A stretch of DNA of 64,000 bases from Vairimorpha necatrix. Taxonomy: Eukaryota. Location of the stretch: contig CP142729.1 of assembly GCA_036630325.1 (NCBI GenBank), positions 248,001-312,000 of the forward strand, in the 5' to 3' direction. This document shows positions 1-60,213 of the stretch, in pieces (the first letter of the stretch is position 1; every line of letters begins with the position of its first letter). Both the position numbers and the translations under genes were made by a program. The notes beneath the pieces were generated by a model, which saw nothing but the letters and a program-made list of their open reading frames with translations, had not been told where the DNA came from and made no database searches.

Positions 1-54
1 AACTACAGTCATAATTATTACCTACAGGTTATTTCCATAACTAATTTGGTAGAA

Positions 55-745: not shown

Positions 746-1976
746 AAAATTCATAAAATTTATTTTGAACTTGACGATTCTCTGATTTTTTTACATTTGA
801 TGATCTACCCCAATTCAAAAGCTCAAGATATAAAAATATAAAGAAAAGATGTTTTCGGTAAATTTTACTGAAAACTAGTCTATCTAGAACCTTTTATTTC
901 TCTGAGTTATAATAATTTTCGATAAAATTAACATGTCGTAGAAAGACAGTCTACACTAAATATCTACTCGCCAAACTCAGGACATCTTATTGCTTGTTTT
1001 AAAATTAAAACCTGATGCTAATTAAATGTGTGATATTTCTGAGCTCACACATATATTTACAAAAATGTATTTGACACAATAAAATGCATTAAAGAAAAAA
1101 AAACAATTATTAACAATGCAATAACTACTCTGTTCAATAAGACTAAACTATATAGAAGATGCATATTACATATCCCATACAGAACAAGATGCCAAATCTG
1201 AAATGCGTGATTTTGGGTTGTTTATAGCGTCAAACAGTTTTCTATAAATTACACAATTAAATTGTACCTTTTAAGGACAGGGCTAATTAAGAAATGTGTC
1301 TTATAAAATATTACTACAAAATTTATGTTTATAATCATACCTTTCTTTACTATGACTTTGTAAAATATGCTTTGACAAAGTTTGGCACATTTGTCAATAT
1401 TTAGGTATGAATACAGTATTTCTATCTTGTATATTTTTCTAACCCTGTGATTTTGAATTTAAGGAACGGATATTTGATTTGTAAACATTTTTCAGTTTTA
1501 AAAAGTCACTTATTATTTATCTGATTGAATTGATTCTTATATAAGAAAGCACAAATTTTTTCTTGAATATATCTCAAATGATATTTTTGTTTTAGTAAAT
1601 TTCTATTTGTTTATGCTCATTAAATTTTAAACATCTTTAAATTGCATGTTAAATTTCTTTTTGTTAATTTAAACACTGATCTAGAGTGGCTAGATGGTTT
1701 TCAAGTCTTTTATAAACTTGTCTTTCCCGATATACATCTAAATCTTCTCTCATTGGTCATTCAATTTATTTTCTCATTAAATTGACAATATCTATCTTGG
1801 CCTTGTTTTTTTTATTTTTCTCTACACTCAGTTATATTTTAAATTATAAATATTTCTGTTTTACTAGATTACATTCTACTTCTCTTTCTCATGATATCCT
1901 CTTTGTTTCTTTGTGTTTCATGTTTTTATTTGTCTTTTTTTTTATATTTATTTTTCTTTGATTATTTTTTTATACC

Positions 1977-4190
1977 ATGATATCTCAAAACGAAAGAAAA
2001 CAGATAATTCTCCATCTCTTTAAACTGTTAAAAGACTCTCAAATCTTCAGTGACCACCCAGAAGATAAAATGAAAGAAGCTGCTTTAAAGTCCGAGCAGA
2101 AAGTATTTGACACTAGTAAAACCAAAGAAGAATATCTTAAGAGTATGAAGAATAAATGTGATAAGATATTAAAGAATACTAAAATTGTAGAGAATAAGAA
2201 AGAAGATGTTAATTTACATACTAGATTGATAACAGGACCAATGACGAGGAATAATGGGAAAGAGAGTCAGAATGTAGGTCATAGGAATGTGCATCCAGAG
2301 TTTGTAAGGAATAATGAGATGAATATGTATAGAAGAAATAGTGACAATATTAACGACAATGAGAGACAACATGTGGAATATAATAGTAAGACGCCTGATA
2401 TGAATGAAAGATTAAGAAGGCCACCATATGAGAAAGATATGAACTACAATAGAGAAGGAACATATAATAGGGAAGCGAGACCAATATTTCAAGGCAGACT
2501 TATCCATGGCGACAGACTAAATCCAGTAGAAAGGCCACACCATGGCGAGAGACCACTACACGGCGACAGACTACACCATGGCGACAGAATAAACCATGGC
2601 GAGAGACTAAATCCAACAGAAAGGCCAAATCATCACGATAGAGCACCACATGTAAACAGACCGCCACATGTAGACAGACCGCCTTATCAAGACAGACCCC
2701 CATATGTAGAAAGACCACCATATGTAGAAAGACCACCACATGTAAACAGGCAATTATATACAGACAGACACTCTTACCAAGACAAACAATATTTTGAAAC
2801 TAGACACTCTTATCAAGACAGACAACATTATGATCTCCCGCCCCATTTCGCCAGAAAAGGCGCATCTTGTAACTTCGGAGATTTACCAAGTGCAACTCAC
2901 AACTCTGACCAGGCATATTTCTATAAGAAATTTATACAGTCTAACCCACCACAAAATAATATAAAAAGGCCACCAATAGGACAAAGTTATGAGACACAAA
3001 CACCCAACTCAATAGGACAAAGTTATGAAATGAAAAAGCAACCAGTAGAAAATTACATTAATGAGAAATTAATACAGAATGGGTTCAATAAACAACCATC
3101 GGGAGAAAATTACATTAATGAGAAATTAATACAGAATGGATATATGAGAGAAAAAAATTTTGTAAATGAAAAATTAATAGGCAATGGAATATTTAGAGGA
3201 GAAAGGGAACTAGATAAAAATTTTATATCTGAAAAATCAATACAAAATGGATTTAATAGAGAGCGTGAAATAAGTAGCGAAAAATCACTAAAAAATGGAA
3301 TTTTGAGGGGCGAAATTGGTCTAGAAAAAAATTTTATATCTGAAAAAACAATCGGAAGTGGATTTAATAGAGAGCGAGAAATAAGTAATGAAAATAATTT
3401 TATGTCCGAAAAATTAATAGGAAATGGTTTTGTGAGAGACAATCGAAAGAAAATAAATGAAGATTTTATACGAGAAGATATAAAACGAGAAAAAATTACA
3501 AGAGAAGAAAAAAATAATCAAAATTTTATAAGGGAAGAAAATACTTTTAGAAAAGATAATGGACAAGGAAATTCTATACAAGAAAGAAATCTGTTACATG
3601 AAAAAATCAATCAAAATTTTATAAGGGAAGAAAATAATATTAGAAAAGACAGTGGTAGAGGAGATTTAGAACGAGAAAATAATAATTTTATTAATAATGG
3701 AAATAAAAATAGCTCAAATTTTATTAGAGAAGAAATCAAAGGAAATAAAAACATTCCAGATTTTATAGAGCCTCAAAGAAATAATTATAATACAAATGTA
3801 AGAGATAATTATATTAAAGGAGATAATTATATTAAAAGAGATAATATCTTGCCTGTAATGATAAATGACGAATTAGTAGATTTACAGTCTTTTATGTCTA
3901 ATACTCAGAGTATAAATCTGTCCCCTGAAGATATTAAATCTTTATCAGATCTCCTTGCTACACTAGAGGAAGATTCCCCCGTAAGCCCAGAAATATTTAA
4001 GAGATTGAAAATACAGAAGGAATTATTAAAGTATAAATATTATTTCATGACTTATGAAGAAGCTTCTAAGGATCTGCAAGAAGAAATCAAATTTGTAAAG
4101 TACGAGGAGGCACTAGAGACGATCTACTCAGTATTTACAAGTAAAAGGAAGCAAGACGAGGAATGGACACTAGATCTAAGGAAGGAATAA
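1977..4190 (+). CDS. KIX-domain protein, Mediator Med15/Gal11-like, with long repetitive disordered middle
   Basis: 737-aa ORF. The N-terminal ~70 aa (ERKQIILHL...AALKSEQKVFDTSKTKEEYLKSMKNK) fit the three-helix KIX pattern. CC immediately before ATG; AATAAA overlaps the stop. Confidence 0.6.
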   Translation: MISQNERKQIILHLFKLLKDSQIFSDHPEDKMKEAALKSEQKVFDTSKTKEEYLKSMKNKCDKILKNTKIVENKKEDVNLHTRLITGPMTRNNGKESQNVGHRNVHPEFVRNNEMNMYRRNSDNINDNERQHVEYNSKTPDMNERLRRPPYEKDMNYNREGTYNREARPIFQGRLIHGDRLNPVERPHHGERPLHGDRLHHGDRINHGERLNPTERPNHHDRAPHVNRPPHVDRPPYQDRPPYVERPPYVERPPHVNRQLYTDRHSYQDKQYFETRHSYQDRQHYDLPPHFARKGASCNFGDLPSATHNSDQAYFYKKFIQSNPPQNNIKRPPIGQSYETQTPNSIGQSYEMKKQPVENYINEKLIQNGFNKQPSGENYINEKLIQNGYMREKNFVNEKLIGNGIFRGERELDKNFISEKSIQNGFNREREISSEKSLKNGILRGEIGLEKNFISEKTIGSGFNREREISNENNFMSEKLIGNGFVRDNRKKINEDFIREDIKREKITREEKNNQNFIREENTFRKDNGQGNSIQERNLLHEKINQNFIREENNIRKDSGRGDLERENNNFINNGNKNSSNFIREEIKGNKNIPDFIEPQRNNYNTNVRDNYIKGDNYIKRDNILPVMINDELVDLQSFMSNTQSINLSPEDIKSLSDLLATLEEDSPVSPEIFKRLKIQKELLKYKYYFMTYEEASKDLQEEIKFVKYEEALETIYSVFTSKRKQDEEWTLDLRKE
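2503..2830 (+). repeat. In-frame degenerate 18-bp (6-aa) tandem repeat within the KIX-protein gene
   Basis: Units HGDRL/HGERP/PPHVDR/PPYVER/SYQDR in the protein; CATGGCGAC/GAGA and CCACCATATGTAGAAAGA in the DNA. Confidence 0.85.
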
Positions 4191-18615: not shown

Positions 18616-18653
18616 TGTTGGGTTTGGAACCCTTATGAATAAAGAGACTAACA
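18616..18653 (+). repeat. 5' LTR of element 1 (38 bp)
   Basis: TGTTGGGTTTGGAACCCTTATGAATAAAGAGACTAACA followed by TGG (PBS-like). Confidence 0.9.
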
Positions 18654-19552
18654 TGGCAAACACGAGAGTAAATGGGGTAACAAGTGAGACCGTGGTCAAG
18701 TGGCCAGAAATTTGTAAAAAGGGGCGAAAAGAATAGGAGCAATGACGAGAATTGAGGAAGTATCTTTAAAGCAAACATTGAGACATGCAAGTGTCGAACT
18801 GGAGGATCTGATCATAGAGGAAATTTTAGTAAATTTAAATAATTCGAGTGAAATAATTGAGGAAATGGGAAAGTTGGTTAAAAATGAAGAAGAAAGAATT
18901 GGAAGAGTTAGTCGAAGGTATTAAAGAAAACTTAAGAAATGAGATCAAAGGGGAGCTAGTAAGAAGAATAGCAATACCAGGAAAACATTATCAATGTAAA
19001 AGAAGAGAAGATACGTTTCGTATTTGGAAAAGTAGGACATATAGCTAGAAGCTGTATTAAATATATAGAAAAACATAAAGAAGAAGATGTGAATAGAAAT
19101 TTTAAGTTTTTTGGTATTTATTATAATAATAAGTCAAATAAGAAGAATTTTTTGAAGAAAAACGATTATAAATTAATATTACCATCCGTGGATGGAAGAG
19201 AAAATACAAGAAGAGGCTCGGACAGGAAATATATGAGTAGCAATTCTACTGATAATAGTAACAAGAAGTTTAATTATGGAAGCAAGACAAATAAGTTCGT
19301 GGTTGAGGAGTGAAAAAATTTTTGATTATAATATTAAAAGAGATAAAAAGGGCTTACAATTAGAGGAAGTTGTAGATCAGTTTGCAGTTGTATTAAAACC
19401 ATCATAATAGAAGATAACGTTTGGAACTATAGTAAAAAGTTTTATAAGGACACTTAAAGGTGCTAAGGTCGTGAGAAGAAGTCAAATAATTCCTCGGAGT
19501 GCAAAAAAAGAGATGAGGAGATACTTTCAGAAAAAATTATAGGCGTGATAAG

Positions 19553-19821
19553 TGTCATGTCCTCAAAACCATGACATCTGTGTTTTACTGTGTTAAAACT
19601 TTAATCAGTAAAACACTGCCCCGAACGAATAGTCTAAGGCGGTGATCTCTAACGATCGGACATGAAACGTTATGTTTCATAAATAAATATAAATAGTCCA
19701 AAAAGTTAGAAGACACCGAGCATGAAGAGTAACTTTAATAACAAATCAAATAAAAAGAAATATAATACAAATATTTTAGAAATGTATTTAAAAAACGGAG
19801 ATATTACTCCAGTTCATGTCA
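19553..19821 (+). repeat. 5' LTR of nested element (269 bp)
   Basis: Direct repeat of 22154..22422 with 2 mismatches seen. Confidence 0.95.
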
Positions 19822-21148
19822 TTTTGAATTCAAAGACATTAAATGAACAAAACAAAAAACGAAATAACGAAGATGACTATATACAAGTCAAAATCAAAGT
19901 TCCAGACTCGGACCTGGAATTTACGAAGAAATTAAAAATAATAAAAAACATCGAAGAATTCGATTTCATTCCTTGGTTTAAGGAATTTGAAGAAATAGCC
20001 ACACAGAACAAATGGAATGCTGAACAAGGCATCATGATACTACGAAATCTAATTACTGATCGACGCCTAGAAGCGGATATTTTCATTACAGATGCAGCAA
20101 CAACCAAAAGAAACTTAATTAAACATATTTTTGAGCAAGATGCTAAAGAAATGTTGCAAGAAGCCTTTAAGGTAAAACAAATAGATTTTCTTTTTATAGA
20201 AAACTATTATGAAAAGATTTACAACAAGATAAGTATCTATAGCGCTTATTACGAAATAAGCAAATCGGAATTTAACAGACATTTAAGCGAATGCTTTTAT
20301 CAAGGGTTAGGAAGAAACTCTACGTTTGAAATAATAAAACATAACTTAGGCGAGAACGTCTTAAATGCTTATAATCACCTAAAAAATATTGAGAAAATGA
20401 TTCGAAAGAAAGCAGAAACTAAGAAAATAAACAAGGTGTCTAATGACGAGCCAGTATATCAAGAAAGAGAAGGATCATACAGTAAAAAGTTTTCAAACAA
20501 GACGAATAACCCAAGATCTTCGTATATAAATAAATGGTGTTCTATACACAAAAACACTAGCCACGACACCAAAGACTGTTATTACAATAAAGACCGACAA
20601 AATGAAAATAAGAAGAAAGAAACAAGAGAAAATCTTAAGATAATCAAAGAACCAATAAAAGTAATAAATGGAATTGAATTAGAAGGTTCAATTGAAAAGA
20701 AAGAAACCAGATTTTTAATCGATACAGGTGCCACAAGAAATTTTATTAGTAATAAAAAGATCAAAGAATTGAAATTATCACCCATTGAAGATGTGGAAAT
20801 CCAAAAAAATTTGCCAATGAGCAAAAAGAAATAACTAACAAAACAGTACTTGTTAGAATAACATTAAAGAATCTAATGAAAGAAAAATACGTAAGATTTT
20901 ATATATTAAAAAACAACAGCGATGATGTAATATTAGGAAATGAATTCCTAGTCGCAAATGAAGTAGTAGTAAATTACAAAGAAGGAACAATTTATGTAGG
21001 AAGGGAGAGATTGAAATTTCTACATAACGACGAATGTTGCGAATTAGACGCAATGTTATTTGAGAAAAATAATGTAGCCCACCTTTTGTCAAGATGCTAT
21101 CGTATTAGTGAGACCGACCTGTTAGAACAGGAAATGAAAACAAGGTAG
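19722..21148 (+). pseudogene. Gag + aspartic protease of nested element (frameshift in A-run near 20805)
   Basis: WFKEFEEIATQNKWN (Gag), CSIHKNTSHDTKDC knuckle variant, FLIDTGATRNFIS protease active site, then DVILGNEFL in the next frame. Confidence 0.85.
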
Positions 21149-21225
21149 ATGAATGTGCATTAAAAACAGAAAATAAAAAGAACTTTAAAAAAGATGAAAA
21201 AGAAAGAATTTATATTGACAGAAAA

Positions 21226-22143
21226 ATGACTAAAGAATTTATTAAATTTGTCCACGAATTGTCGGGACATTGCGGGCAAGTAATCATGTATTTAAACTTA
21301 AAAAGATGGTACAACATCATAAACATTAGAACAGTGATCCGCAAGATATGCAATCAGTGTATCGTATGTAAAGAAAACAAGGATTTTAAACAACAGAATC
21401 TAGAAAGAAATAAAATAGATAGCAGTGCACCATTTGAAATAATAAGCACAGATATTTTTGGTCCTTTTCTCCTGGAGGAGTTTGAGGGCGACTCTCTAAA
21501 CCATAAGGGTTATATCTTGACCATAACCGATGTGTTTTCGAGATTCACGAGAATTTGGTTTGGTGAGAAGTTTAGGAGTGAGGAAGTTATTATGTGTTTA
21601 AACGAATGGAGTGATGATTTTGCGAAGCCTAAAGCGCTAATTTCGGACAATGGTCCGCAATATAAAAGTAAAAAAATGAAAGATTATACTAATAAAATAC
21701 AAATCGAACATCGGCTAATACCGATATATTACCCTCAAAGCAATGGAATTTCAGAACGTATAAATCAAACAATTGCAGAAGTGCTGAGAATGAATATAGG
21801 AAAGAATATAAAACACATTATTATGCAAATTGAACATCGGATAAATAATAATGTTAATACCACACTGGGAATTGCGCCTAGAGAAGCAATTTATAAGAAT
21901 AGTTTTTATGACATTGAGAAAAGGGTTAATGTGCCATTTTTGCGAAACATACCTGCAGTTGAAGTGAACTATAAGCGACGTATCGCAGTAAATGACATTG
22001 TATACTTAAAAAATTATAGCAATAATAAACTCGAGCGGAAATACTATGGGCCGTTTAAAGTTATGGAAATCGGTAAGAAAGGAAGTTGGGTTCGACTTAA
22101 AGACATGCCCAACTGGGTTCATATTAAACAGTTGAAGCTGTAG
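21226..22143 (+). CDS. Retroviral-type integrase of nested element
   Basis: HELSGH..CNQCIVC zinc motif, STDIFGP, ISDNGPQY, SNGISER, YGPF (GPY/F) motif. Confidence 0.9.
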   Translation: MTKEFIKFVHELSGHCGQVIMYLNLKRWYNIINIRTVIRKICNQCIVCKENKDFKQQNLERNKIDSSAPFEIISTDIFGPFLLEEFEGDSLNHKGYILTITDVFSRFTRIWFGEKFRSEEVIMCLNEWSDDFAKPKALISDNGPQYKSKKMKDYTNKIQIEHRLIPIYYPQSNGISERINQTIAEVLRMNIGKNIKHIIMQIEHRINNNVNTTLGIAPREAIYKNSFYDIEKRVNVPFLRNIPAVEVNYKRRIAVNDIVYLKNYSNNKLERKYYGPFKVMEIGKKGSWVRLKDMPNWVHIKQLKL

Positions 22144-22153
22144 GGGGGCAGAC

Positions 22154-22422
22154 TGTCATGTCCTCAAAACCATGACATCTGTGTTTTACTGTGTTAAAAC
22201 TTTAATCAGTAAAACACTGCCCCGAACGAATAGTCTAAGGCGGTGATCTCTAACGATCGGACATGAAACGTTATGTTTCATAAATAAATATAAATAGTCC
22301 AAAAAGTTAGAAGACACCGAGCATGAAGAGTAACTTTAATAACAAATCAAATAAAAAGAAATATAATACAAATATTTTAGAATTGTATTTAAAAAACGGA
22401 GATATTACTCCGGTTCATGTCA
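22154..22422 (+). repeat. 3' LTR of nested element (269 bp)
   Basis: Direct repeat of 19553..19821. Confidence 0.95.
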
Positions 22423-24647
22423 ATAAGGAACGAATTCTGATTGGAGGAGTCCGATACGAGCGATTGAGAAGCCTAATGGTGGCGGGACGAATTGTGAGTA
22501 ATTTTATGGGGTTGAATGATTTGATTGAAAAAGGCCCTTATGCGTTACTTACAATAAGATACATTTAAGCAACTCAAGGATCCTCGGTATTTAGTGTGAT
22601 TGATCTTGAAGAAGGGTTCTTCCACATAGCAATTGAAGAGAAACACAGATATAAAACAGCGTTTGAATTTGATGGGAATGTGTACGAGTGGAACAGCATG
22701 GTGATGGAATCTAAGAACGCACCACAGATAATGCAGAAAACAATGAATGGGATTTTAAAGAATTTTAAAGGAAAGGGTGTAAAGGTGTATTTAGACGATA
22801 TAGTTATTCACGCTAAAGATGGCATGCGACACGACGAGTTATTTTTGGGTGTAATGAAAAGTTTCCAAACGCACGTCTCAAGATTAATCTTAAAAAGATA
22901 CAATATAGGAAAGGAGAAGTTTATTTATTGTGAGTGTCAGCCGATGGTAGTAATAAAAAGCCATCAGAAATAACAAGAAATGAAGCGTTAGAATATAAGC
23001 GGAAGGAGTGCGTGAGGAAATTGCGGAGATTTTTGGGTTTGGCGATTGGTTTAGAGAATTTATTAAGAATTTTGCGACAATAACATTAAACCTATTTGAG
23101 GCTTTAAAAACTAGCAGAAAATGGAAGAAGAATACATTTTAATTCAACAAGAGTTAAGCAATTTCAGCTAATAAAGATACCAGACTATATGTTTTGAATT
23201 TAGGTTACGTACAAATGCGTCGGATACGAGGCTTGGAGCAGTCCTTTTACCAAGAATAAAGAAGGGATCTGGATACCTATACAATGGGCCTCAAAAAAAA
23301 TTGACACCAACGGAGAGAAGATATGCTATTTTGAAAAGGAGATGTTAGCGGTTGTATGGGGCATAGAAAAGTTTTTTTACGAGTTGAGAGGAAGGAAATT
23401 TGAGTTAATGATGGACCATAAAGCCTTTGGAGAGCTTAGAAACAACCCCTTCTTTAATTTTAAAGAGTAGATTGGTGGATTATTATAATACAGGAGTATG
23501 ACTTCAACGTGCAATATGTAAAGGTGAATTAATGGCAGATGCGGATGCTTTAAGTAGACAAAATCAAGATGATAAAAATAAAAATGAATCTTTAATATAG
23601 AAAAAAGTTTCTGCACAAATGAAGGGAAAAATTGAAAAACACACAGTGATCAGAGACAAAAAGGAGCATTGGGAATTTGATAATGGAGTACAAAGGGAAA
23701 TCCCAAAATTGAAGAGAGATCAAAAATTGTAAAGGACATACATGAGGGGTTAAACCATAGAGGGGTAAAAGTGACATATTTTGAACTAAAGAAACATTAT
23801 TATTAGCCGAAAATAAAAGATCAGGTAATGTGAAAAAAGAGCATGCTAGATGTGTCAGATAGGTAATAGGAAGAATAAGGATGGTGTTGATTATGTTACA
23901 TCAAGTTATAAAGGCGAGAAATTTGCAATTAATGTCATGGAGATTGGTGATCCTCGAAAGTTGGCTTTAATGGGAATTGACTATTTTACTCGATATTTGT
24001 ATGCTAGTGTTAATAAAATAAAAGTACAAATATGATTTTTGGTGTTTTAATGGATTAGTCTAAAATAGGAGATATCCCCGGATGATTATAAGCGATAACG
24101 CCAAAGAGTTAGTAGGAGAAGACTTTAGGAAGTGGTGTTTCATAAACAAGATTGAGCATAGGAAAGTTAGCGTAGAAACCCACAGAAGCAACGGCCGGAT
24201 AGAAAGGGTGGTAAGAACGATACGTGGAAGCGTATTTAAGCAGCGTATGGTTGATTCTGAAGCTGCAGTGAATAAGACAACGGTGATGTACATTAGGACG
24301 GATCATAGCGGACTTAAGTGTACCCCCTTGGAGGCTGTTAACGTAAGAAATAAACATGTAGAGGCAAAATGGGAAAACTCGGGAGATGAAGAATATGCCA
24401 AGAAATTTATCAAAAGGGCGAGAGAAAAGTTTTCGGCGGGCCAGGCTGTAAGAATTGCGAAAGAGAGAAAATCTTGGTAATGTTAGCAAACAGGATAGTG
24501 GTAGATTCGACAGAAAAGGCGATCAGCTTGAAAGTTGTGGGGAAGATTCTTATCTAGTAAAAACTGAGGATGATAAAATTATCAAAAAGAGACATTATGA
24601 TCTTAAAGGAATTATGGAAAGTAAGACTAACCGTCTCGAGGATAAGA

Positions 24648-24685
24648 TGTTGGGGTTGGAACCCTCATGAATAAAGAGACTAACA
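24648..24685 (+). repeat. 3' LTR of element 1 (38 bp)
   Basis: TGTTGGGGTTGGAACCCTCATGAATAAAGAGACTAACA; 2 differences from the 5' copy; preceded by a decayed purine tract. Confidence 0.9.
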
Positions 24686-49398: not shown

Positions 49399-50920
49399 TT
49401 ACTGAAAATATAATATATAAATATAAATAAAAAAATAAATAATTGTCCTAATTCACTGCCTTAAAATTTTGCAAAAGATCTTTAATGATCTTCTAACCAT
49501 ATATATAAATATATATATATCTATTTTGCCTATACTACTAAAAAAATAACTCCTATTAACATCATACAGTTTTCACAGTGATATCTTTTTAAATTTTGAA
49601 AAAAAAATTTATTCAAATAAGATTGGTTTATTATATATTGCTTGTAATAAATACAAAAATGGTGATCATTATTTTTAAAAGATAAAAAAGGGATACATAT
49701 TTAACTAGCATTTTATGTAATTCTAACCTTAAATTTTTAAAATATATCATATGGTCTTGTATATGACAGAAAAAAATCTTATTAATATCATTTAAGTGTG
49801 GTATCAACTTTATTGTCAATATTTGTTTAATTTATAAAGTGATATGTTTGGCGGAAAATTCTCATAATCCTTAGTTTCTAAAAATAGTACATAAACTTAT
49901 CAACTACCAATGTCCAAATGAGTCAATTCAAGCTAAAAACCATGTTTTTTCTCTTTGTAGAAATAAGTAAGCGTAATTCCTCTACTTGAGTTTTTAGAAA
50001 AAAACCATTACATTACTTATATATAACGTATAAGAGACAAAAAAGGTAGTATTTCCGGAATAGCATAATTAATAAAGTATGAAATGGTATTTTTATCTAT
50101 ATTACACTTATCCACTCGTAAAAAATACTCTTTATCCTTCGAATAATATTAGTTGTCAAAACCGCCAAAATAGAAAGATTAAGATTGTTTTGTATGTTCA
50201 CTTTCTCATATAAATTGTAATTAGATGTAATAATGTATTACATGTATAGAGATATGACAAATAAATAACCAACAAAATTGCTAGTCCTACAAGAGATTAT
50301 ATTTAGTTCAAAAGCTAACATTGGTATTTTGAACTCGGTTCTATCGTCTTTATGTCATATCTGTAATCTATCACAAAAATATAGATCAAAATTGTTACAA
50401 AAAATCCGAAAAGTCTAGTATTGTTATGGAATAACCAAAATAATTAGAAAATAAATAGATTTCGTTAATAACTATTTGCCTATATGATGAATGCTTAGAA
50501 ATTCAAAACATCCAGGGCTACCTGAGTTCTTTTTGCTCTATATAAGATCTGGAAATTTAATAGTATAGTTGAACCTTAATAAACATGACTAAAATAAAAT
50601 TAAGAAATTTTTTCTTAGAAGGCCGAATTTTTACGGTTAATTACGTTGTTTTTTTTAGATGGAAAATCTAAAAAAAGCATCTAATTCTAAAACAGTTATA
50701 ACGATCCTATTGATATTATTGTATATTACTTTGTGGTCCCCTCTAGTGAGGGCAAAACAAAAATATTGCTCCAACGGGGAGCGAATGCAAATTTGTTTTT
50801 TAAATGATTTATTAATGGTGGAACTAATCTTTGTGGTACTAATGTTGCCTTTATTGTTGTAAAAATTATTCTTGTTCATTTCTATTTTTGTCGTACCTTT
50901 TTTTAATATTTTTTATTTTT

Positions 50921-50958
50921 TGTTAACCATTTATTTATTAAGGGTTCTAAACCCTACA
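50921..50958 (-). repeat. 3' LTR of element 2 (38 bp)
   Basis: Minus strand TGTAGGGTTTAGAACCCTTAATAAATAAATGGTTAACA directly after the PPT. Confidence 0.95.
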
Positions 50959-53947
50959 TCCCCCCTCCAGACGGGTAGTCTCTCCATCTTCTAAACAACT
51001 CTTCCTTATCTCTTTCAAATCATAATGCCTCTTTTTAACAATTTTACCATCCAGTAGTCTCACAATATATGAATCATTTTCACTTATAGCTACGATCCTT
51101 CCGCGACCCGTGAATCTTCCCTTGTCTGTTTTCGCACGTGTACCTAAATTTTCTCTCCTAGCGATTCTTACCTCTTGGCCTACTGTAAATGTCTCTCTGT
51201 GTCTTCTCTTGAACCGACCAGCATATTTTCCATTTTCATCATTTTCAATTATAACTTCAGCAGTTTGATCTCTCCACGCTTCCATCGGCGTACATTTTAT
51301 TGCTGTATGTAGTGTATTATTATATCCTTTGATTGCTCTTTCTATCTTTTCAGAAATATTCCCATCATTTTGCTTTATCAATGTCTCTCTTATAGTTCTG
51401 ATGCATCTCTCGATTATACCATTACTCCTATGAGCTTCTAAGCCCACTTTCCTATGTTTAATATCATTAATACTACACCATTCTTTAAATCTATTACTTA
51501 CAAACTCTTTTCCGTTGTCTGTCACATATTCCTCTGGAAATCCATCTTCCCTTATCCACTTTTGTAATACCTCTATAACTTCACTACTCTCTTTACATCT
51601 CAAATTCGAACCCCACAACCTTCTAGTAAAGTAATCAATACCCAGTAACACATACCTATTCTCTCCACCTATGTCCATTAAATCCAACGCCACTTTCTCC
51701 AATTTCTTTCTAGTTACTACGAAATCACATCCTCCTGTGTTTTTCCTATTGTTAATCCCACATATTTCACAATTCTTAATTACCTTATTAATATGATCTT
51801 TCATACCAGGCCAATACCATCTTTGTTTAATGTTATAATAAGTGCCTTTGACACCTCTATGGTTTAACTCCTCATGTACTCTTGTTATTTCATGTTCTCT
51901 ACTATCTAGGCTCAATATCTCTTTCACCTCACCTGTGGAAAATTCCCATTACTGTTTACCGTCCTTTTCTTTAATATGTTTCTGCTTTTTTCCCAAAATT
52001 TGTTTTTCGATCACTTCTTTTCTCTTGTTGTCCTTTTCTTTTTGTTCATCCGAAACTTCTACCTGATCATACTGCCTGCTTAACGCATCTGCATCTGTCA
52101 TCAACTCCCCTTTCACATACTCTATTGTAAAGTCAAACTCTTGTATCTGTTCTACCCATCTGTTTATTCTGTTATTATTGAAGTATGGCTTATTTCTGAT
52201 CTCTGCTAATGCTTTATGATCCGTCATCAAATGAAATTTCCTTCCTCTAAAATCACTTTCAAACTTCTTTATTCCAAAAAACACCGCCAACATCTCTTTC
52301 TCACTTATCGTATATCTTCGCTCGGTAGGAGTCAACATTTTCGATGCCCATTGTATCGGAATCCACTCACCCTCTTTATTTTCTTGTAATAGAATTGCTC
52401 CGATCCCCGTATCACACGCATCAGTTCTTACTCTAAATAGCTTTTTTCCGTCCGGAATCTTCAACTTTTTCATATCTCTCAAGCCTTGCTTCATATCCTC
52501 AAGGCTCTTTCCATATCCTCCGTCCAATTCCACTTAACATCTTTCTTTAAAGCCTCAGTAAGCCTTACTGTTCTATACGCATAGTTGGGAATAAAGTCTC
52601 TAAACCAACCAGTTAGTCCTAAAAATCTTCTTAACTCTCTAACATTCTCAGGTTTTCTATATTCCAATGTCTCCTGCTTTTTAATCTCATTCGGTCCCAT
52701 GACCTCCCTATTAATTGTTACTCCCAGCAACATCACCTCATCTTTTTTGTATTGTATCTTTGTTTGGTTTATTCTCAACCCACACTCTTTAAACTTTTTA
52801 ATTACCCTCTCTAGTAACTCGTCATGCACTCTTACGTCTTTACCATGAATAACTATATCATCCATATATACTTCCACGCCTTTACCTCTGAATTCATCTA
52901 AAACTCTGTTCATTACTCTCTGCATTATATGAGGCGAATTCTTAAACCCCATAACCATACTATTCCATTCGTATACTCGACCATTCACTTCAAATGCTGT
53001 TTTGTGCTTATGGTGCTCCTCAATCTCAATATGATAAAATCCTTCTTTTAAGTCGATAACCGTAAATACTTTTGACCCCTGTGTGGCTCTCATAATATCC
53101 TTAATTAACGGTAGTGAGTACGGGTCCTTGTCAACCAAATCGTTTAACGCCATCAAATTGCTTACCAATCTTACGTCCCCATTTGGTTTTTCAAGTGCTC
53201 TTATTGGACTCCTCCACTCACTTTTGGAACGTCTTATAACCCCTCTATTTTCCAACTTATTCAAGTACTCCTCAAATTTCACCCTAAGGTAGTATGGCAC
53301 ATTCTGCCCTCTTTTCACAACCTTTTCACCTTGCTTAGTATTTATTGGACACTTCTCTCCTGTGAGATATTTTATCTTTTCTTCTGATTCTTTAAAAACT
53401 TCCGGATACTTTTCAATTAAATTTTCTAACTTATTTACTGTTTTACATCTTTTCCCTTCATTGTTGATAATTGGTTCTTTCTGTAAAACTTGTTCCTTTT
53501 TAATTTTATATTTTTCCCTACCAGCTACACTTTCATGACATTCTCTAGCGTAATGCCCTTCTTTCTTACATATAAAACATTTTGTAGTTTCTCTGATTTC
53601 TCTTCTTTTCCTATACATCCTAAGATTTTCTTTTCTTTCTTCCCTAAACTCTTTCAACACTTTATCCATAATCTCTTTAATCATTTCTTGTCTTTCTTCT
53701 GACTCTCTCTCAAATTCTGCTCCTTTTTGTAAGCCTTTATAAATTTCCTCCCAACTGCTCCTTCCGTCACAAAAATTTTCAAAAATATAATCCTGCAAGT
53801 TCGCAGATGCCAAATCCATAACATCTTTCCACTCAACTTTCAATATTAACTTTAGTCTCTTATCTATCCTAATTGCCTCTTTCTCTAATGTTCTAGCCTC
53901 TTGACTACGGGACTCTCTTGTTTCCCTGTTCATCCTTGTGTTCGCCA

Positions 53948-53985
53948 TGTTAACCATTTATTTATTAAGGGTTCTAAACCCTACA
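53948..53985 (-). repeat. 5' LTR of element 2 (38 bp)
   Basis: Identical to 50921..50958; followed by TGGCG. Confidence 0.95.
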
Positions 53986-55384
53986 TTTTTTAAAAAAAAA
54001 TTTCTAGAAAATGCATGTTTGTTAAATATTAAAATGAATTAAAAAATATAGAAATGTAACTATTTTGTGGTAGGATACTACATACTTATAATTTGTTTTC
54101 TGAAAATTGATAAATATTTTGTTCATGAGAATTAAATAAGTTTGTTTTGGGTGGTTACAAAAATACAGGTCCTAGGTGAGTTTTTCAAAGTGCATTGGAT
54201 TAATTAATTTTTTAGTAAGCTACGTGTTTTTTATCTAATATATGTAGTCTTAAAGGTTTCTTCAAATTATTACGATAGAATTAGCTTCTCTTAATTCATA
54301 ATTTAATGTGCCTTTCGGTATGTTGTAGCTAGGCCGTTAAATTGAGACATATCAAAGAAAATTTTTTCACAACGCTGAGCCCCTTTGATAGATAATGGCT
54401 ATTAGATGCGTATTCTGTTTTGGTCTGCTTGCTGCAAATCATAATATAGTCACGCTGATCTCAATTATTAGAATTTATTTTGTTTTTTATCACTATATGT
54501 TTTTTTTATTTTTATATCTATATATACTTCCGCTTTTATTTTTATGAATTCATTTCACATCCAGTTATCTGATTGAAAATATTTTTTATTTAAGTTTTTC
54601 ATTTTACCCATTACACGCCAGCAGAAATATTCTTTGACTATCATATTTTGTCTCTAAATGTCCGCCCTACCCTTTTAACCACTTATAAATAAGAAGGAAT
54701 ATGCTTTAATAAAAAAAATTATTTATATAGATGCTCTGAAAATATTATTACCTCTAAAACTTAAAAGTAAATCTTACAAATTAATAAAGTTTCTTACATA
54801 ATTTGGGTATTAATTATGAGTTATGGCGTCAATAGTTAAAAAAGTAATGCATTTACTTTTATTTATGACAAATCGTTAAAATTATATTATCGTCATAAAA
54901 AACAACTTTAAGTGCCAATAATATTCTGAAAAATCTATAATATAATGTTTGAATTAAATTTCTAATTGCTTATGAAAGCTCGAAATCGTTTTTAAGTTTA
55001 CTGTAATGTTGTGCTAGACAAAATAATTCAAAAAAATTATGTTTAAAAAATAGAAGTATAAAAACTTAAGTCCCTAGCATTGTATTCATGCAAATAAAAT
55101 ATTTAGACAGATTAAAATTTTGACAAATAATGACCAGAAGGTAAATACGTTGTGACACATAATAAGTAAAATTAATGCATGTGTATTTAATATGTAATTC
55201 TTTTGATATGTTTTTTTTACTAACAAAATATTTATTATATCATTTTAATTTATCAAAAGTCAGTAAAATTTGCTTTTTATAAAACACATAATTATTTCTA
55301 AAATTCATTCTATACATAAAAATCTCTGAAACATTGTTTGTTATGTAAAAGCAAACTTTAAACGGAGAAGGGATACTTAGAGCT

Positions 55385-56145
55385 GCATTTGAGAGTGTAC
55401 GATTTTTTTCGTACCCCCAAAATGAATGCAAAAAAGAGGAGCAAGCAAGGGACAAAAATTACTAAGCACCTTTGATAATAAAAATATTTTTAGATACAGA
55501 AATTATTTTAAATAACTTTTATAGTCAAAAAAATTATTTTGCATCTTTTACACTTCCGATTTTTGTATTTTTTTTTAAGTGTTTGTTCATTTTAAAAGGA
55601 GATTTTTTCATAAATTTTCTTTAATAAGAACAAAAAATTAAAAAGTAATATGTTAGAAAAAAAAACTAAATACATATTCTAAAATCTTAACAAAGTTTTT
55701 AATCAAAAATTGTATATAAAAAATGTTAAATAAATTCGAAATATATATATACAGTTTGGTAGAGAAATTCTTTATAAAATTAAATTTTATATATAAATAC
55801 ATGTTTATTTGTTTTTTTTAATGTTTAAAAATGTAAGTAATTTGAGTGTTAATGTTATCTTCTTTCTTTTTTGCACTATATTTTCCTTGTGGTTCGAAAA
55901 TATAAAGGGAACACCCTCCGAGAAGGGGCATTTTGGACCCCAACTCCAAAAAATCGATAGGTAAAAATGCATAATCATTTAAATGAATATAAATATTAAT
56001 TTAAAAATAATCTTTGTATTTAAAAATAGAATAATTTGGTAGGTTCATTGTCATAAGTGCTTAGTAAAATTTGTCCCTTGCTTGCTTCTCATTTTTTTGC
56101 ACTTCATTTTTAAGGTCCGAAAAAAAATCGTACACTCTCAAATGC
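55385..56145. mobile_element. MITE-like / non-autonomous DNA transposon with ~85-90 bp imperfect terminal inverted repeats
   Basis: GCATTTGAGAGTGTACGATTTTTTTC...GCAAGCAAGGGACAAA..TTACTAAGCAC at 55385..55469, and its reverse complement at ~56057..56145. AT-rich non-coding interior; no clear TSD. Confidence 0.75.
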
Positions 56146-56348
56146 GAGGCTGTTAGTTCTCTTTAGCCTTTTAAACTACGGATTATAAGTATTTTAATCA
56201 TATTCTACATTTAAACAGTTAGGCATTTAGTTTTTAATAAATCTTCAATTAAATAAATTAAATTTTGGCTTAAAGAATTTTTTAAAAATATATTTACTTT
56301 AATAATTCATTACAGAAACAGAAATTATATTTGGGAGCCTTTAATTAA

Positions 56349-56397
56349 TATAAGTGCTTAACATAATTGGGGTTTAATATTATTACTGATTATAACA
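56349..56397 (-). repeat. 3' LTR of element 3 (49 bp)
   Basis: Minus strand TGTTATAATCAGTAATAATATTAAACCCCAATTATGTTAAGCACTTATA. Confidence 0.95.
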
Positions 56398-56413
56398 TCC
56401 CCCCTCCAGACGG

Positions 56414-59400
56414 TTAGTCTCCTTCAACATACTTTAAATCCCCTACACCCTTAAGATCATAATGCCTTTTTTTCACCAACCTTCCATTCTCTAATCTCAC
56501 TATATATGAATCCCCTGGACATAGCTCAATCACTCTTCCCATGTCTAAAAATCGACCCTTACTATACTTACTACATCCCTTTAAATTCTCATTCTTGGCA
56601 ACCCTAACTATCTGGTTCCTTTTGAACTTTTCTCTAAACCAACTTTTAAACTGTTGCGCATACTTTCCCTCTGGACTATTCTCCATACTAACATTTCCTG
56701 TATTATCGGTTAAAGCTTCTACTGGCGTGCACTTAATACCAGCATGAAAACTTAAATTATATTTCTCAATAGCTTCATAAACCTTGTTCTCGAATTTTTC
56801 TTTTTGGCTCTTTAAAATACTATCTCTTACAGTTCTAATAACTCTTTCTACTCTTCCATTACTTCTGTGCGACTCAACGCTGACCTTTCTATGACTAATA
56901 TCCAAATTTCTACATAGCTCGGTAACTTTTTCGTTGCAAAACTCTTTACCATTATCCGTAATGATTTCCTCTGGTTTTCTACCCTGTTTACACAAATCCT
57001 TGATAAATTCGGCAATTCCAGATGCGTGCTTGCTCTTCAATACTCTGCCCCATAATCTCCTTGTAAAGTAATCAACTGCCAAAACAATAAACGCTTTCTC
57101 ATCCCTAAATTCTATTAAATCTAAGCCAACCTTCTCTAAATATCTTGTCGTGTTCACTAAATCAGTACCGCCACTCGTTTTTCTATTAAAAATCTGACAA
57201 GTCTCGCAATTCTTAAGGACCTTTTCGATCTGATCCTTAATTCCTGGCCAATAATACTGTTTCCTCAACTCATAATATACCGTTGTTCTGCTTCTGTGGC
57301 TCAAATTTACATGACAATCCATTATTAATCTCTCTCTGTCTTGTTCCAAAGGCATCTCGCCTTCTCTACCACTATCAAATACCCAGTATTCTTTACCTTC
57401 TACAATTTTTACATGCTTATTTCTTTTCCCTTCTTTTTGTCTATCACGGCGTGTTTCATTTCTCTTTTTCTTTGCATCTTTTTCTTTTGTATATACCCTA
57501 CTTAGCGCATCGGCTACGACCATATTTTCTGGAGTTCTATACTCTATCACGAAATCAAATTCCTGAATCTTCTCGACCCATCTATTAATTCTAGCATTCT
57601 TAAAGTCGGGCTTGTTTCTTATTTCGCCCAACGCTTTATGATCAGTTTCTATTCTAAATTTCCTACCTCTTAATTCATATTCAAACTTTTTAACGCCCCA
57701 AAAAACTGCGTACATTTCTTTTTCTGATATACCATAATTAACTTCCGTAACGGTAAACTTCTTAGACGCCCACTGTACTGGCACCCATTCTCCTTGATTA
57801 TTTTTCTGTAACAGTACTGCGCCCATGCCTACATTACTAGCGTCAGTCCTCAACAAAAATTCTTTATCATAGTCTGCTATTTTCAGCTTTCCTAGGCCTT
57901 TCAATACTTCTTTTAAATTATTAAACTCGTTTTTCATATCATCCGTCCACTTCCAATTATCATTCTTCCCTTTTAAACTATCTGTCAACCTAACTGTCAA
58001 TCCAGCGTAATTCTTAATAAAATCTCTGAACCAACCCGTCATTCCTAAAAATCTTCTTACATCTGACACGCATGTTGGTATCGGAAACTCTAGGGCTTCA
58101 TTTTTCTTTATCTCTGACGGTATTATATCTTCTCCATTTAAAGTGACTCCCAATAATTTAACTTCCCGTTGACAAAACTGAACTTTATTTGCATTCAGCT
58201 TCAAATTGTTTTCCTTCAGTCTATTTAATACCCTTTTCACTAATTGCTCGTGTTCTCCTATCGTTCGGCTGTACAACACAATATCGTCCATATACACCTC
58301 TACTCCTTTGCCTTTCATATCTCTAAAAATCCTATCCATAATTCTCTGCAATATCTGCGGGCTATTCTTATATCCCATAACCATAGAGTTCCATTCATAA
58401 ACCTTGCCATTAAAATCAAACGCCGTCTTATGTTTATCCTCCTCCTCTATCTCAATACTATAGAAGGCCTCTTTTAAGTCGAAAACCGTCATATATTTTG
58501 CACCTTGTGTAGCTCTTACAACATCTCTTATGTTAGACAATCTATACTCGTCCTTTTGTACAATATCGTTCAATGCCATCAAATTACTAACCAGTCTTAT
58601 CTCACCATTTGGCTTTCTGATCGACCTTATAGGATTCCTCCAACTTGAATTTGACTCTCTTATCACTTTCCTTTTTAATAAATCTTCTAGATGTAGCTCT
58701 GTATCTTTTATCAACGCCTGCGGAACCATTTGTCCCTTTTTAAATACCTTCATACCCGCTTCAGTATTAATTTTACATTTTTCCAGTTTACAATATTTTA
58801 TCTCCTCTTTTCCTAACTTAAAAACCTCTCCAAAACTCTTAGCATACTTATCTAAATTTAATCTGATTCTCTTACTCTCCTCTTTAACGGCATATTCTTT
58901 TTGATTTTTCTCAAATTTGACTCTAAGTCCTCTTTTTGATCTTCTAAAATCTCGCTCCTGACTTGACTCTGATTCACTACCTACTTCCATTTTGCAACTG
59001 TTATCCTTGTTATTCTTTTTATAATAATTATCTCTATTAATCTTCAGTCTGCATTCAAACACCCTATGCCCTTGTCTATCACAATAGAAGCATCTCGGTA
59101 CTCTCGATTTTTGTCTTGGTTGTTCTCTACTAATTTCTTCATTTATAGTCCTAGAAATAATTTTTCTCATTTCCTCATATATCTTTTCTTTTTCCTCTAC
59201 TTCCTTAATCCTTAACAATAGCTTCTTCCTTATTCCTTCAATATTTTCTTCCTTTTTGATATTTCTCACAATAAAATCTTTTAAATCCATCGAAGCCAAC
59301 TTGAACAGCTCACTCTTCCATTTCACTCTATCTACATCTCTCAAATCCAATTCATACAATATACGCTCTAACTCCTGTAACATCTTTCTGACCACTTGGC

Positions 59401-59458
59401 CACAGTCCTCTCTTGTGAACTCTTCTTTAGGTATCGCCCCCATATAAGTGCTTAACAT
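56414..59458 (-). CDS. Single Gag-RT-RNaseH-integrase polyprotein (1014 aa), no recognisable protease
   Basis: CFYCDRQGHRVFEC knuckle; FDLKEAFY, MVMGYKNSP, VYMDDIV (RT); RTDAS..GAVLLQ, ETDHKAL, VADALSR (RNase H); H..LSH..CETC, ITDNG, SNGRVER (integrase). Confidence 0.95.
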   Translation of the reverse strand: MLSTYMGAIPKEEFTREDCGQVVRKMLQELERILYELDLRDVDRVKWKSELFKLASMDLKDFIVRNIKKEENIEGIRKKLLLRIKEVEEKEKIYEEMRKIISRTINEEISREQPRQKSRVPRCFYCDRQGHRVFECRLKINRDNYYKKNNKDNSCKMEVGSESESSQERDFRRSKRGLRVKFEKNQKEYAVKEESKRIRLNLDKYAKSFGEVFKLGKEEIKYCKLEKCKINTEAGMKVFKKGQMVPQALIKDTELHLEDLLKRKVIRESNSSWRNPIRSIRKPNGEIRLVSNLMALNDIVQKDEYRLSNIRDVVRATQGAKYMTVFDLKEAFYSIEIEEEDKHKTAFDFNGKVYEWNSMVMGYKNSPQILQRIMDRIFRDMKGKGVEVYMDDIVLYSRTIGEHEQLVKRVLNRLKENNLKLNANKVQFCQREVKLLGVTLNGEDIIPSEIKKNEALEFPIPTCVSDVRRFLGMTGWFRDFIKNYAGLTVRLTDSLKGKNDNWKWTDDMKNEFNNLKEVLKGLGKLKIADYDKEFLLRTDASNVGMGAVLLQKNNQGEWVPVQWASKKFTVTEVNYGISEKEMYAVFWGVKKFEYELRGRKFRIETDHKALGEIRNKPDFKNARINRWVEKIQEFDFVIEYRTPENMVVADALSRVYTKEKDAKKKRNETRRDRQKEGKRNKHVKIVEGKEYWVFDSGREGEMPLEQDRERLIMDCHVNLSHRSRTTVYYELRKQYYWPGIKDQIEKVLKNCETCQIFNRKTSGGTDLVNTTRYLEKVGLDLIEFRDEKAFIVLAVDYFTRRLWGRVLKSKHASGIAEFIKDLCKQGRKPEEIITDNGKEFCNEKVTELCRNLDISHRKVSVESHRSNGRVERVIRTVRDSILKSQKEKFENKVYEAIEKYNLSFHAGIKCTPVEALTDNTGNVSMENSPEGKYAQQFKSWFREKFKRNQIVRVAKNENLKGCSKYSKGRFLDMGRVIELCPGDSYIVRLENGRLVKKRHYDLKGVGDLKYVEGD

Positions 59459-59491
59459 AATTGGGGTTTAATATTATTACTGATTATAACA
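59443..59491 (-). repeat. 5' LTR of element 3 (49 bp)
   Basis: Identical to 56349..56397. Confidence 0.95.
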
Positions 59492-59661
59492 ATTAATAAT
59501 AAAAAAGGAATACTAGCAGGAAAATCATATTAATAAATAATTACTATCAGATTACACACGATTTATTTTAACAACCATTTAATTTTTATATTTTTTATTA
59601 AATATTGATTTTACATCAATCAATACTGTTTAAAAAACTAAAAAAAGAATTCTTATCGACT

Positions 59662-60213
59662 ATGAATAATTTATTTTATTTGTGTGCTGTTTTTTTATCT
59701 TCTAAAGGATGTCCGGATCGTATAAATATGATTAGAAAAGACGTAGCTGGTATCTTCATAAAAGACAATCCTAAATCTGTATTAAATAACTTGTTAATCG
59801 AGAAATATCGTACTAGACAATCTGCTCCGAGAATCGAAGATTATACTAAAAAAGAATATAATATTAAAAATAACAGTTTTCAGGTAGAATGGGAATTAAG
59901 ATTTGAAAACGAAGTCAAAAGTTTTTTAGAAAAAGAAAAAGAAAATTTTATTTGTGCAAAAAATGGAAGTATTTTACTAGATTTAAGCAAGAAAATTGAG
60001 ATTTCTAAGGAAAATAACTTTAGCAATTATCAAAATTTAAAACTAGAGTACGAATTGGCAGATCTTATTTTGTGGAGAATAAAGCTATATGAAAAAATTG
60101 TGAAAAGAGAACTGAGGTCGTTTAAAAAAATAGTTTATAATATTCAGGAAAATTTACACAGTGAAAATGAATTACTCAAAACAAAATATTGTGAATGTCA
60201 TGGTTGCGAATAA
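59662..60213 (+). CDS. Small secreted-type protein (family D)
   Basis: Start reassigned to MNNLFYLCAVFLSS; IRKDVAGIFIKDNPKSVLNNLLIEKYRT...FQVEWELRF. Confidence 0.85.
   Translation: MNNLFYLCAVFLSSKGCPDRINMIRKDVAGIFIKDNPKSVLNNLLIEKYRTRQSAPRIEDYTKKEYNIKNNSFQVEWELRFENEVKSFLEKEKENFICAKNGSILLDLSKKIEISKENNFSNYQNLKLEYELADLILWRIKLYEKIVKRELRSFKKIVYNIQENLHSENELLKTKYCECHGCE

Follow-up and report, generated by a model that had tools for sequence, protein, structure and literature searches.

Ty3 of Saccharomyces cerevisiae is about 5.4 kb long, with 340-bp long terminal repeats (LTRs) and a frameshift that links its separate GAG3 and POL3 frames, and it encodes both a capsid domain and a protease. Tf1 of Schizosaccharomyces pombe has LTRs of about 350 bp and a protease, and it is self-priming, using its own 5′ end. 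The LTRs of the TRIM, SMART, and TR-GAG elements of plants are still about 100 bp or more. For microsporidia, the main-text passages and supplementary tables of one study report 97 LTR-retrotransposon consensus sequences in Anncaliia algerae and describe Ty3/gypsy elements with one polyprotein each, which fall into three groups specific to microsporidia (Parisot et al. 2014, PMC4202319); a 2026 genome paper, in the part that bears on such elements, cites only the single-polyprotein point (PMC13174016). Here, we analyzed 64,000 nt of Vairimorpha necatrix DNA (contig CP142729.1, positions 248,001 to 312,000; referred to as the window) and describe a 3143-bp element, element 3, with LTRs of 49 bp. 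Two other elements with 38-bp repeats, elements 1 and 2, lie in the same window. It is very likely that element 3 belongs, as an intact copy, to a microsporidian clade of minimal Ty3/gypsy-type elements of about 3.0-3.2 kb, in which the LTR has shrunk to host signals.

Element 3 occupies positions 56349..59491 on the minus strand and has the layout LTR, open reading frame (ORF), LTR. Its parts are as follows.

56344..56348: left copy of the target-site duplication ATTAA (flank comparison)
56349..56397, minus strand: 3′ LTR, 49 bp, same sequence as the 5′ LTR (repeat search)
56398..56421, minus strand: conserved 24-nt box GAGACTAACCGTCTGGAGGGGGGA, which overlaps the stop codon and has the polypurine tract (56398-56407) at its end
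56414..59458, minus strand: single ORF of 1014 amino acids (P0001), 3045 nt, 96.9% of element 3
59440..59442, minus strand: TGG directly 3′ of the 5′ LTR, start of the presumed primer-binding site, inside the ORF
59443..59491, minus strand: 5′ LTR, 49 bp, TG..TA, with ATTAAA, a CCCC box, and the first ATG at LTR position 34
59492..59496: right copy of the target-site duplication ATTAA (flank comparison)

A repeat search of the window returned identical direct repeats of 50 nt, at 56348-56397 and 59442-59491. The last of these 50 bases is the T that opens TGG next to the 5′ copy and the T that opens the target duplication next to the 3′ copy and, therefore, the LTR was set at 49 bp (56349-56397 and 59443-59491). 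With up to three mismatches allowed, this 49-mer occurs exactly twice in the window, and no occurrence is expected by chance (100 shuffles). The duplication is 5 bp long, within the 4-6 bp typical of Ty3/gypsy elements, and reads ATTAA on the plus strand and TTAAT in the orientation of the element. In that orientation, GGAGGGGGGA, the polypurine tract, immediately precedes the 3′ LTR. The ORF starts inside the 5′ LTR, with its ATG at LTR position 34, and a second ATG in the same frame spans the LTR border, its A being the last base of the LTR and its TG the start of TGG. Non-coding sequence between the LTRs amounts to only 16 nt, 10 of them in the polypurine tract. An earlier note on this DNA had given the positions of the three elements, their 38-, 38-, and 49-bp repeats, the duplications, the TGG, and the tract before the 3′ LTR of elements 2 and 3, and the 3045-nt ORF of element 3, all of which were confirmed here.

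Next, the ends of the repeats were compared with public contigs and with related loci. Two public runs contained these sequences, X1 (word share 0.83) and X2 (0.67), and their contigs were compared with positions 50500-60000. All the runs consist of contigs, so the ends of molecules cannot be read from them. The X1 contigs over the elements end inside the LTRs (50930-52593, 52564-53965, 56370-57691, and 57662-59462), and one flank contig begins at 59491. Loose ends that are unlike the window start at 56346 before element 3 and at 59493 behind it; for element 2, they start at 50958, 53947, and 53993/53994. For copies of element 3 elsewhere, in contigs of both X1 and X2, homology to the window stops no more than 2 nt from the outer LTR ends. 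Depth in X1 was 34.5-37 for the element 3 contigs and 60.6-65.3 for those of element 2, compared to 2.7-4.2 for flank contigs. The elements thus exceed the flanks in depth by a factor of about 10-20, which does not give a copy number and is a sign of multiple copies only. The families are multi-copy, with copies in different flanks.

Loci related to element 3 were found with the clade alignment as the query; the single protein as the query found none in three collections. One metagenome relative, L001, has 50% protein identity to element 3 and is a 3163-bp element with 39-bp TG..CA LTRs (one mismatch) and its own 5-bp duplication, TTATA. Its 5′ LTR is followed by TGGCACCC, and its 3′ LTR is preceded by a purine tract. 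Three other relatives, for which only the 3′ ends are present (L002, L081, and L083), show the conserved box, a purine tract, and the order TGT..AATAAA..CCC..ATG..CA over 38-49 nt. Since the priming signals abut the repeats, the copies diverge at the repeat ends, and L001 has the same design, the 38-49-bp repeats are complete LTRs, as the earlier note had proposed. A further hint comes from protein matches on contigs of 2991-3283 bp (28 of the best 55), which carry ORFs of about 1000 amino acids and leave little room for long LTRs; this is a hint only, as such contigs may be cut inside the repeats.

The protein encoded by element 3 was examined by alignment and Pfam, and four regions were recognized.

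59051..59092, minus strand: CCHC zinc knuckle, residues 123-136, the sole recognizable Gag/nucleocapsid feature (alignment, Pfam)
58139..58621, minus strand: reverse transcriptase (RT), residues 280-440 (RVT_1, E 7.8e-37; Ty3 RT 4ol8, E 4e-90)
57557..57949, minus strand: RNase H, residues 504-634 (RT_RNaseH, E 2.7e-32, residues 529-634; RT_RNaseH_2, E 2.3e-27)
56888..57343, minus strand: integrase, with an HHCC zinc domain at residues 706-759 (Integrase_H2C2) and a DDE core at residues 779-857 (rve) (Pfam)

The order of the Pol domains, RT, RNase H, and integrase, is that of Ty3/gypsy elements (Metaviridae), and the best solved matches of a profile built from 28 clade members were Ty3 Gag-Pol (7q5b, E 6e-109) and Ty3 RT (4ol8, E 4e-90). 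By its domains, then, element 3 is a Ty3/gypsy-type LTR retrotransposon; the same identity had been assigned to it before, and both the Pfam domains and Ty3 as best solved relative bear it out. The presumed catalytic residues (YMDD, the acidic residues of RNase H, HHCC, and D780/D835/E871) fall in invariant columns of the clade alignment and are all present in element 3. In the integrase, H716, H721, C751, C754, D780, D835, and E871 are invariant. In the knuckle, C123, C126, and H131 are nearly invariant and C136 is invariant. The zf-CCHC match of element 3 itself falls below the cut-off (E 0.024), and 14 of 28 relatives match this family.

Upstream of the RT, the clade alignment contains about 120 poorly conserved residues, which may be what is left of a capsid, the knuckle, and a variable, gap-rich linker. 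Neither Retrotrans_gag nor Ty3_capsid was matched in Pfam by the clade proteins or by the N-terminal 220 amino acids. The ESM Atlas neighbors of residues 1-215 are Gag/zf-CCHC clusters with scores of 0.82-0.87, which is below the 0.9 level for a lead.

The clade comprises about 50 relatives of about 1000 amino acids with intact ORFs, down to about 40% identity, and the named ones are all microsporidian: Nosema granulosis, Vairimorpha necatrix, V. apis, Enteropsectra breve, and Pancytospora philotis. In the databases, they are labeled ‘endonuclease’, ‘reverse transcriptase’, or ‘hypothetical protein’. Named matches stay microsporidian down to E 6e-122; beyond this, animal elements appear, with about 33-35% identity over 45% of the query. 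A microsporidian host, which had been suggested earlier, is well supported by the DNA, because the named relatives are all microsporidian and host genes begin behind CCC boxes, as detailed below.

The earlier note had called the elements apparently autonomous, and the protein data weaken this description, as no protease was found. Aspartic-protease families were matched by none of the 28 clade proteins at E ≤ 0.01, and residues 1-220 of element 3 matched zf-CCHC alone, and no protease, even at E ≤ 10. Between the knuckle and the RT motif, 25 of 26 clade proteins have no D[ST]G, the signature of the aspartic protease that lies between Gag and RT in Ty3/gypsy elements. This stretch is 99-148 amino acids long, of which about 60 are the conserved RT N-terminus. 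One larger relative, L005, is different: it gave a weak RVP match (E 7e-4, 20.2 bits vs a cut-off of 20.7). L005 is a metagenome contig of 3993 bp holding an element of about 3.95 kb, with 66-bp TG..CA LTRs and TGGCACCCGAGC after the 5′ LTR. Judged from these features, L005 appears to be intermediate between the usual microsporidian elements and the protease-less type of 3.1 kb. From the alignments and domain searches, it appears that the protease and part of Gag have been lost in the 3.1-kb clade.

One explanation is that the element, deprived of its protease and most of Gag, is non-autonomous and relies on larger, protease-bearing Ty3/gypsy elements of microsporidia or on an aspartic protease of the host to form particles and to process its polyprotein. 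We regard this as possible, though short of probable. It agrees with the absence of a protease from all 28 clade members and with the existence of protease-bearing elements, namely L005 with its weak RVP match and an element nested in element 1 that matches Asp_protease_2. In addition, Supplementary Table S1 of Parisot et al. (PMC4202319) lists many A. algerae elements of about 4 kb beside a class of about 3.1-3.7 kb. However, the protease-less design has been kept in about 50 relatives, down to about 40% identity and with intact ORFs of about 1000 amino acids, and such long persistence would be unusual for a parasite of other elements. The potential helpers are also distant, with integrase or polyprotein identity to their clients of only about 21% (nested element) to 35% (L005), so cleavage sites would need to be recognized across a great distance. 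Finally, the sole protease-bearing element in the window is itself defective, having no RT.

The opposite idea is that the clade, without a protease and most of the capsid, transposes autonomously as an uncleaved fusion of knuckle, RT, RNase H, and integrase, with an LTR that is a host module of about 40 nt and an R region of about 10-20 nt. This combined proposal is tentative, and we would not bet on it. If true, no smaller design of an autonomous LTR retroelement would be known (3.0-3.2 kb, about 97% coding), and the design would occur throughout Microsporidia, systematically escaping LTR finders. Full autonomy taken by itself is conceivable and still rather doubtful.

To compare LTR content, five LTRs were placed in the same orientation, those of elements 1-3, L001, and L005. 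All five begin with TGT and contain AATAAA or ATTAAA, a CCC box 3-12 nt before an ATG, 2-5 codons, and a terminal (C/T)A, which is followed by TGG. A second ATG arises where the last A of the LTR meets the TG of TGG, and elements 1-3 and L005 have both ATGs in one frame. Clade proteins show the same double start: of the 26 that open with M, the pattern M-x(2-5)-M[AG] is seen in 12, and seven begin directly with M[AG]. At the other end, 10 of the 28 proteins finish in a tail of the ...ETPSGGGDV... type, which is encoded by the box and the polypurine tract and continues into the TGT of the 3′ LTR, so that in those 10 members the ORF spans from LTR to LTR.

The LTR contents resemble the signals of host genes. 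CCC lies no more than 7 nt upstream of the ATG in eight of 12 host ORFs examined in the window (for example, aaccctt-ATG); examples of the starts examined are listed here.

13655, minus strand: host gene start
25820, plus strand: host gene start
32464, minus strand: host gene start
36135, plus strand: host gene start
40636, plus strand: host gene start

This host pattern corresponds to the microsporidian ‘CCC-like motif’ and is useful for annotating start codons in the genome. The parts of one study that deal with these signals report that Encephalitozoon cuniculi has 5′ untranslated regions of less than 7 nt and the poly(A) signals AAUAAA/AUUAAA, and that upstream CCC-type signals also occur in Nosema ceranae and Anncaliia algerae (Peyretaillade et al. 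2009, PMC2803860). The earlier suggestion that LTR shrinkage mirrors host compaction is plausible in this light, in that the LTR content matches the signals at host gene starts and gene ends; the link itself is still a matter of interpretation.

Our proposed mechanism is that the LTR has shrunk to the compact gene-end and gene-start signals of the host, placed between two ends recognized by integrase. Read from 5′ to 3′, it would consist of the TGT end, the poly(A) signal, the CCC box, the start codon with about five codons behind it, and the terminal (C/T)A. As in microsporidian genes, transcripts would begin in the 5′ LTR just ahead of the ATG and downstream of the CCC box. This would place the poly(A) signal in U3, to be read only from the 3′ LTR, where the RNA would be cleaved close to the LTR end. 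U3 would then measure about 25-30 nt, and R, together with at most a little U5, about 10-20 nt. The minus strand would be started at the TGG-led site, a stretch that is also coding, and would be transferred by way of the short R. Retroviral R regions as short as about 15 nt occur in nature, and a jump via so short an R is feasible. Plus-strand DNA would be primed at the GGAGGGGGGA tract, and integrase would insert the copy into AT-rich DNA with the 5-bp duplication, the last of which is observed. The protease-free polyprotein would either work uncleaved or be cut by a helper element or a host enzyme.

The tract proposed for plus-strand priming is part of a larger conserved region. GGAGGGGGGA is present in elements 2 and 3, and purine-rich equivalents are present in L001, L002, L081, and L083. 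A box of about 24 nt before the 3′ LTR, GAGACTA(A/C)CCGTCT(G/C)GAGGGGGGA, is conserved at the nucleotide level despite a protein likeness of only about 45-50%. Its sites are listed here.

56398-56421, minus strand: element 3
50959-50982, minus strand: element 2
24624-24647, plus strand: element 1
3641-3663: L001
about 3200-3222: L002
2707-2735: L081
1537-1560: L083

Because the nucleotides have been kept while the proteins are only about 45-50% alike, the box may be a cis signal in plus-strand priming. The GAGAC and GTCT(C) within it can pair as a small hairpin. For minus-strand priming, self-priming as in Tf1 was considered and rejected, as a 5-nt complement (CCCCA vs TGGGG) was seen by eye in element 3 only and in none of elements 1, 2, and L001.

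Another possibility is that the LTR has no promoter of its own, that the transcripts begin in the upstream flank and run on beyond the downstream end, and that the whole 38-49-bp repeat serves as R, without U3 or U5. We consider this unlikely. A promoter of 25-30 nt would be very small, and the literature passages on Encephalitozoon cuniculi describe transcriptional overrun and blurred 3′ end formation (PMC2803860), both of which fit such a scheme. However, a CCC box stands 0-12 nt before the in-LTR ATG, as in the host, in five LTRs and at the start of A. algerae ‘retro L’, and its placement would be unexplained if the LTR were only a block of homology. Also, the strand jump would be impeded if strong-stop DNA carried 5′ tails copied from the flanks.

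The families could also be extinct, with element 3 an intact-looking fossil whose LTRs are identical simply because they are short. A divergence of 1-2% is often invisible in 38-49 bp, the LTRs of element 2 are identical although its ORF is broken, one X2 variant contig carries two stop codons, and no empty site was seen among the contigs. These points are outweighed by the state of the coding sequences, which makes extinction improbable. The 1014-amino-acid ORF of element 3 keeps every catalytic residue that is invariant in the clade. The X1 contigs are about 99.6% identical to element 3 (11 listed differences in about 3.1 kb), and six of the 11 differences are synonymous, the sample being small. 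Both frame breaks of element 2 occur in the window copy alone, as contigs of both X1 and X2 differ from it exactly there. The last alternative, that the short repeats are remnants of longer LTRs, chance matches, or an assembly artifact, has only the general expectation of LTRs of at least 100 bp in its favor and can be given almost no credence, as no chance matches are expected, the repeats are directly adjoined by the duplication, TGG, and polypurine tract, likeness to independent contigs stops where the repeats end, and similar sizes occur in L001 and in a published A. algerae consensus.

Several observations weigh against element 3 being an intact, minimal element with an LTR reduced to host signals. 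The termini of its LTR are TG..TA and not the canonical TG..CA. The order of signals is not uniform, since AATAAA in element 1 comes after the first ATG and not before the CCC box, and the two ATGs of L001 are out of frame. The sequence after TGG varies between families (TGGGGGCG, TGGCGAAC, and TGGCACCC) and no tRNA was matched to it; a tRNA scan of the window found no tRNA genes. The transcript start, the poly(A) site, and the division into U3, R, and U5 are all placed from the CCC box, the ATG, and AATAAA and so are putative. The depth ratios are contig-based and are not copy numbers. Neither an empty site, nor a solo LTR, nor an LTR-LTR circle joint was found among the X1 and X2 contigs or in the window, and mobility was, therefore, deduced from copies with different flanks and not observed. 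The joints that were listed are short internal skips, along with one A/T-rich back-joint that is probably spurious. Lastly, the missing protease counts against full autonomy.

The other elements of the window are given below.

50921..53985, minus strand: element 2, 3065 bp, of a different family from element 3 (repeat search, ORFs)
18616..24685, plus strand: element 1, a decayed relative of element 2 (38-bp LTRs, nested insertion)
19553..22422, plus strand: LTR element nested in element 1, unrelated and not of the tiny-LTR kind (repeats, ORFs)

Element 2 has identical 38-bp TG..CA LTRs at 50921-50958 and 53948-53985. This 38-mer occurs twice in the window, with no occurrence expected by chance, and TGG and GGAGGGGGGA are found at the same places as in element 3. 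Its duplication, TTTTT, is of low complexity, and its ORF is in three pieces, being broken at two places. Element 1 has 38-bp LTRs with two mismatches (18616-18653 and 24648-24685), a degenerate polypurine tract, and a heavily decayed coding region that is split by the nested element; its flanks, TTTTA vs TATAA, show no matching duplication. No solo LTR of either the element 2 38-mer or the element 3 49-mer was present in the window at up to three mismatches.

Protein identity is about 45-50% between elements 3 and 2 and about 28-48% between element 3 and the pieces of element 1, with two very short pieces ignored. The LTRs of elements 1 and 2 are alike, suggesting that these two are closer to each other. 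On these comparisons, the three elements belong to at least two families and are not the three diverged copies of one element that they had first been taken for. In other public data, a bat gut metagenome run contained small pieces of element 2 that were at least 99% alike, at a depth of 2-5, and freshwater metagenome runs contained short element pieces in the same contig comparison (X3/X4).

The nested element has LTRs of about 270 bp (282 nt at 97% in the repeat search) and the duplication ATAAG on both sides. Its ORFs gave an Asp_protease_2 match and an integrase match, and no RT or RNase H was found in them with Pfam. Since these two domains are missing, the nested element, at about 2.9 kb, is taken to be a deletion derivative. 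Its ORF also begins within its own LTR.

The surrounding DNA has 22-25% GC and encodes intron-less housekeeping genes, including ribosomal protein uS5, an Spt6-type SH2 domain, Dcp2, GNAT, and VPS9 domains. GC-richer patches at 48-50 kb and 60-62 kb contain ORFs without a meaningful Pfam match. Among the related loci, the element-bearing contigs of L081-L083 and of the protein P0022 are filed in bacterial metagenome-assembled genomes labeled Clostridium sp. and Turicibacter sp., and these contigs are most likely eukaryotic binning contaminants.

These findings have consequences for annotation. The default minimum LTR length of LTRharvest (minlenltr) is 100 (Table 1, PMC2253517), and the earlier expectation that default LTR finders miss these elements is consistent with this setting. 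Because LTRs of 38-50 bp are below the default minimum of the finders, structure-based annotation of microsporidian genomes will miss such elements or label them as plain ‘polyprotein’ genes. The elements also give a lower bound on the necessary content of an LTR and suggest that LTR size tracks the transcription signals of the host. The absence of a protease throughout this long-lived clade raises the question of whether replication of an LTR retroelement is possible without polyprotein processing.

Among the known systems, Ty3 (Gag3-Pol3) is like element 3 in the order RT, RNase H, and integrase, in its HHCC and DDE integrase, in its 5-bp duplication, and in its CCHC knuckle. In the Ty3 7q5b chain, the matched RT part starts at residue 602, compared to position 237 in the clade profile, so that about 365 residues of upstream Ty3 content are missing from the clade. 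Tf1 and Tf2 are like element 3 in having one continuous gag-pol ORF. TRIM, SMART, and TR-GAG are likewise very small LTR elements, with TR-GAG of less than 4 kb in the part of the source that describes it (PMC4350172), but they are non-autonomous and without RT or integrase, whereas element 3 encodes RT, RNase H, and integrase.

The closest system is found in A. algerae, in the following entries of Supplementary Table S1 (PMC4202319).

Aalg retro L, complete: LTR 50 bp, ORF 32-3049, total 3127 bp
retro S: LTR 45 bp, ORF 81-3719, total 3806 bp
retro CK: LTR 73 bp, ORF 45-3464, total 3752 bp
other complete A. algerae elements: LTR 90-272 bp, ORF and total length varying

Retro L, which has 19-45 occurrences per strain (Table S2, PMC4202319), and element 3 have LTRs of 50 vs 49 bp, ORFs that start at position 32 vs LTR position 34, and total lengths of 3127 vs 3143 bp. 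By eye, the 5′ end of retro L is also like that of element 3, with TGT, AATAAA, ACCC abutting the ATG, five more codons, AACA, TGGCG, and a CCHC knuckle. The two differ in that retro L is from another genus and another family, and they were compared by the tabulated description and by eye. The main-text passages of Parisot et al. (PMC4202319) do not discuss tiny LTRs, and the word ‘protease’ has no occurrence in the main text. More widely, no discussion of tiny LTRs or of protease loss in microsporidian elements was found in the literature covered, which does not extend to the Nosema bombycis Nbr work or to Figure 1A and Supplementary Figure S1 of Parisot et al.

The kind is, thus, not new, and element 3 adds to a known but under-described one. 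Novelty, which the earlier note had left to a search, is limited because this architecture, with such LTR sizes, was already tabulated for A. algerae in 2014, as the entries of Table S1 (PMC4202319) show. Compared to that catalog, the additions made here are ends confirmed from independent copies, a clade-wide design that includes LTR-to-LTR ORFs, the consistent absence of a protease, and an LTR content that matches host signals.

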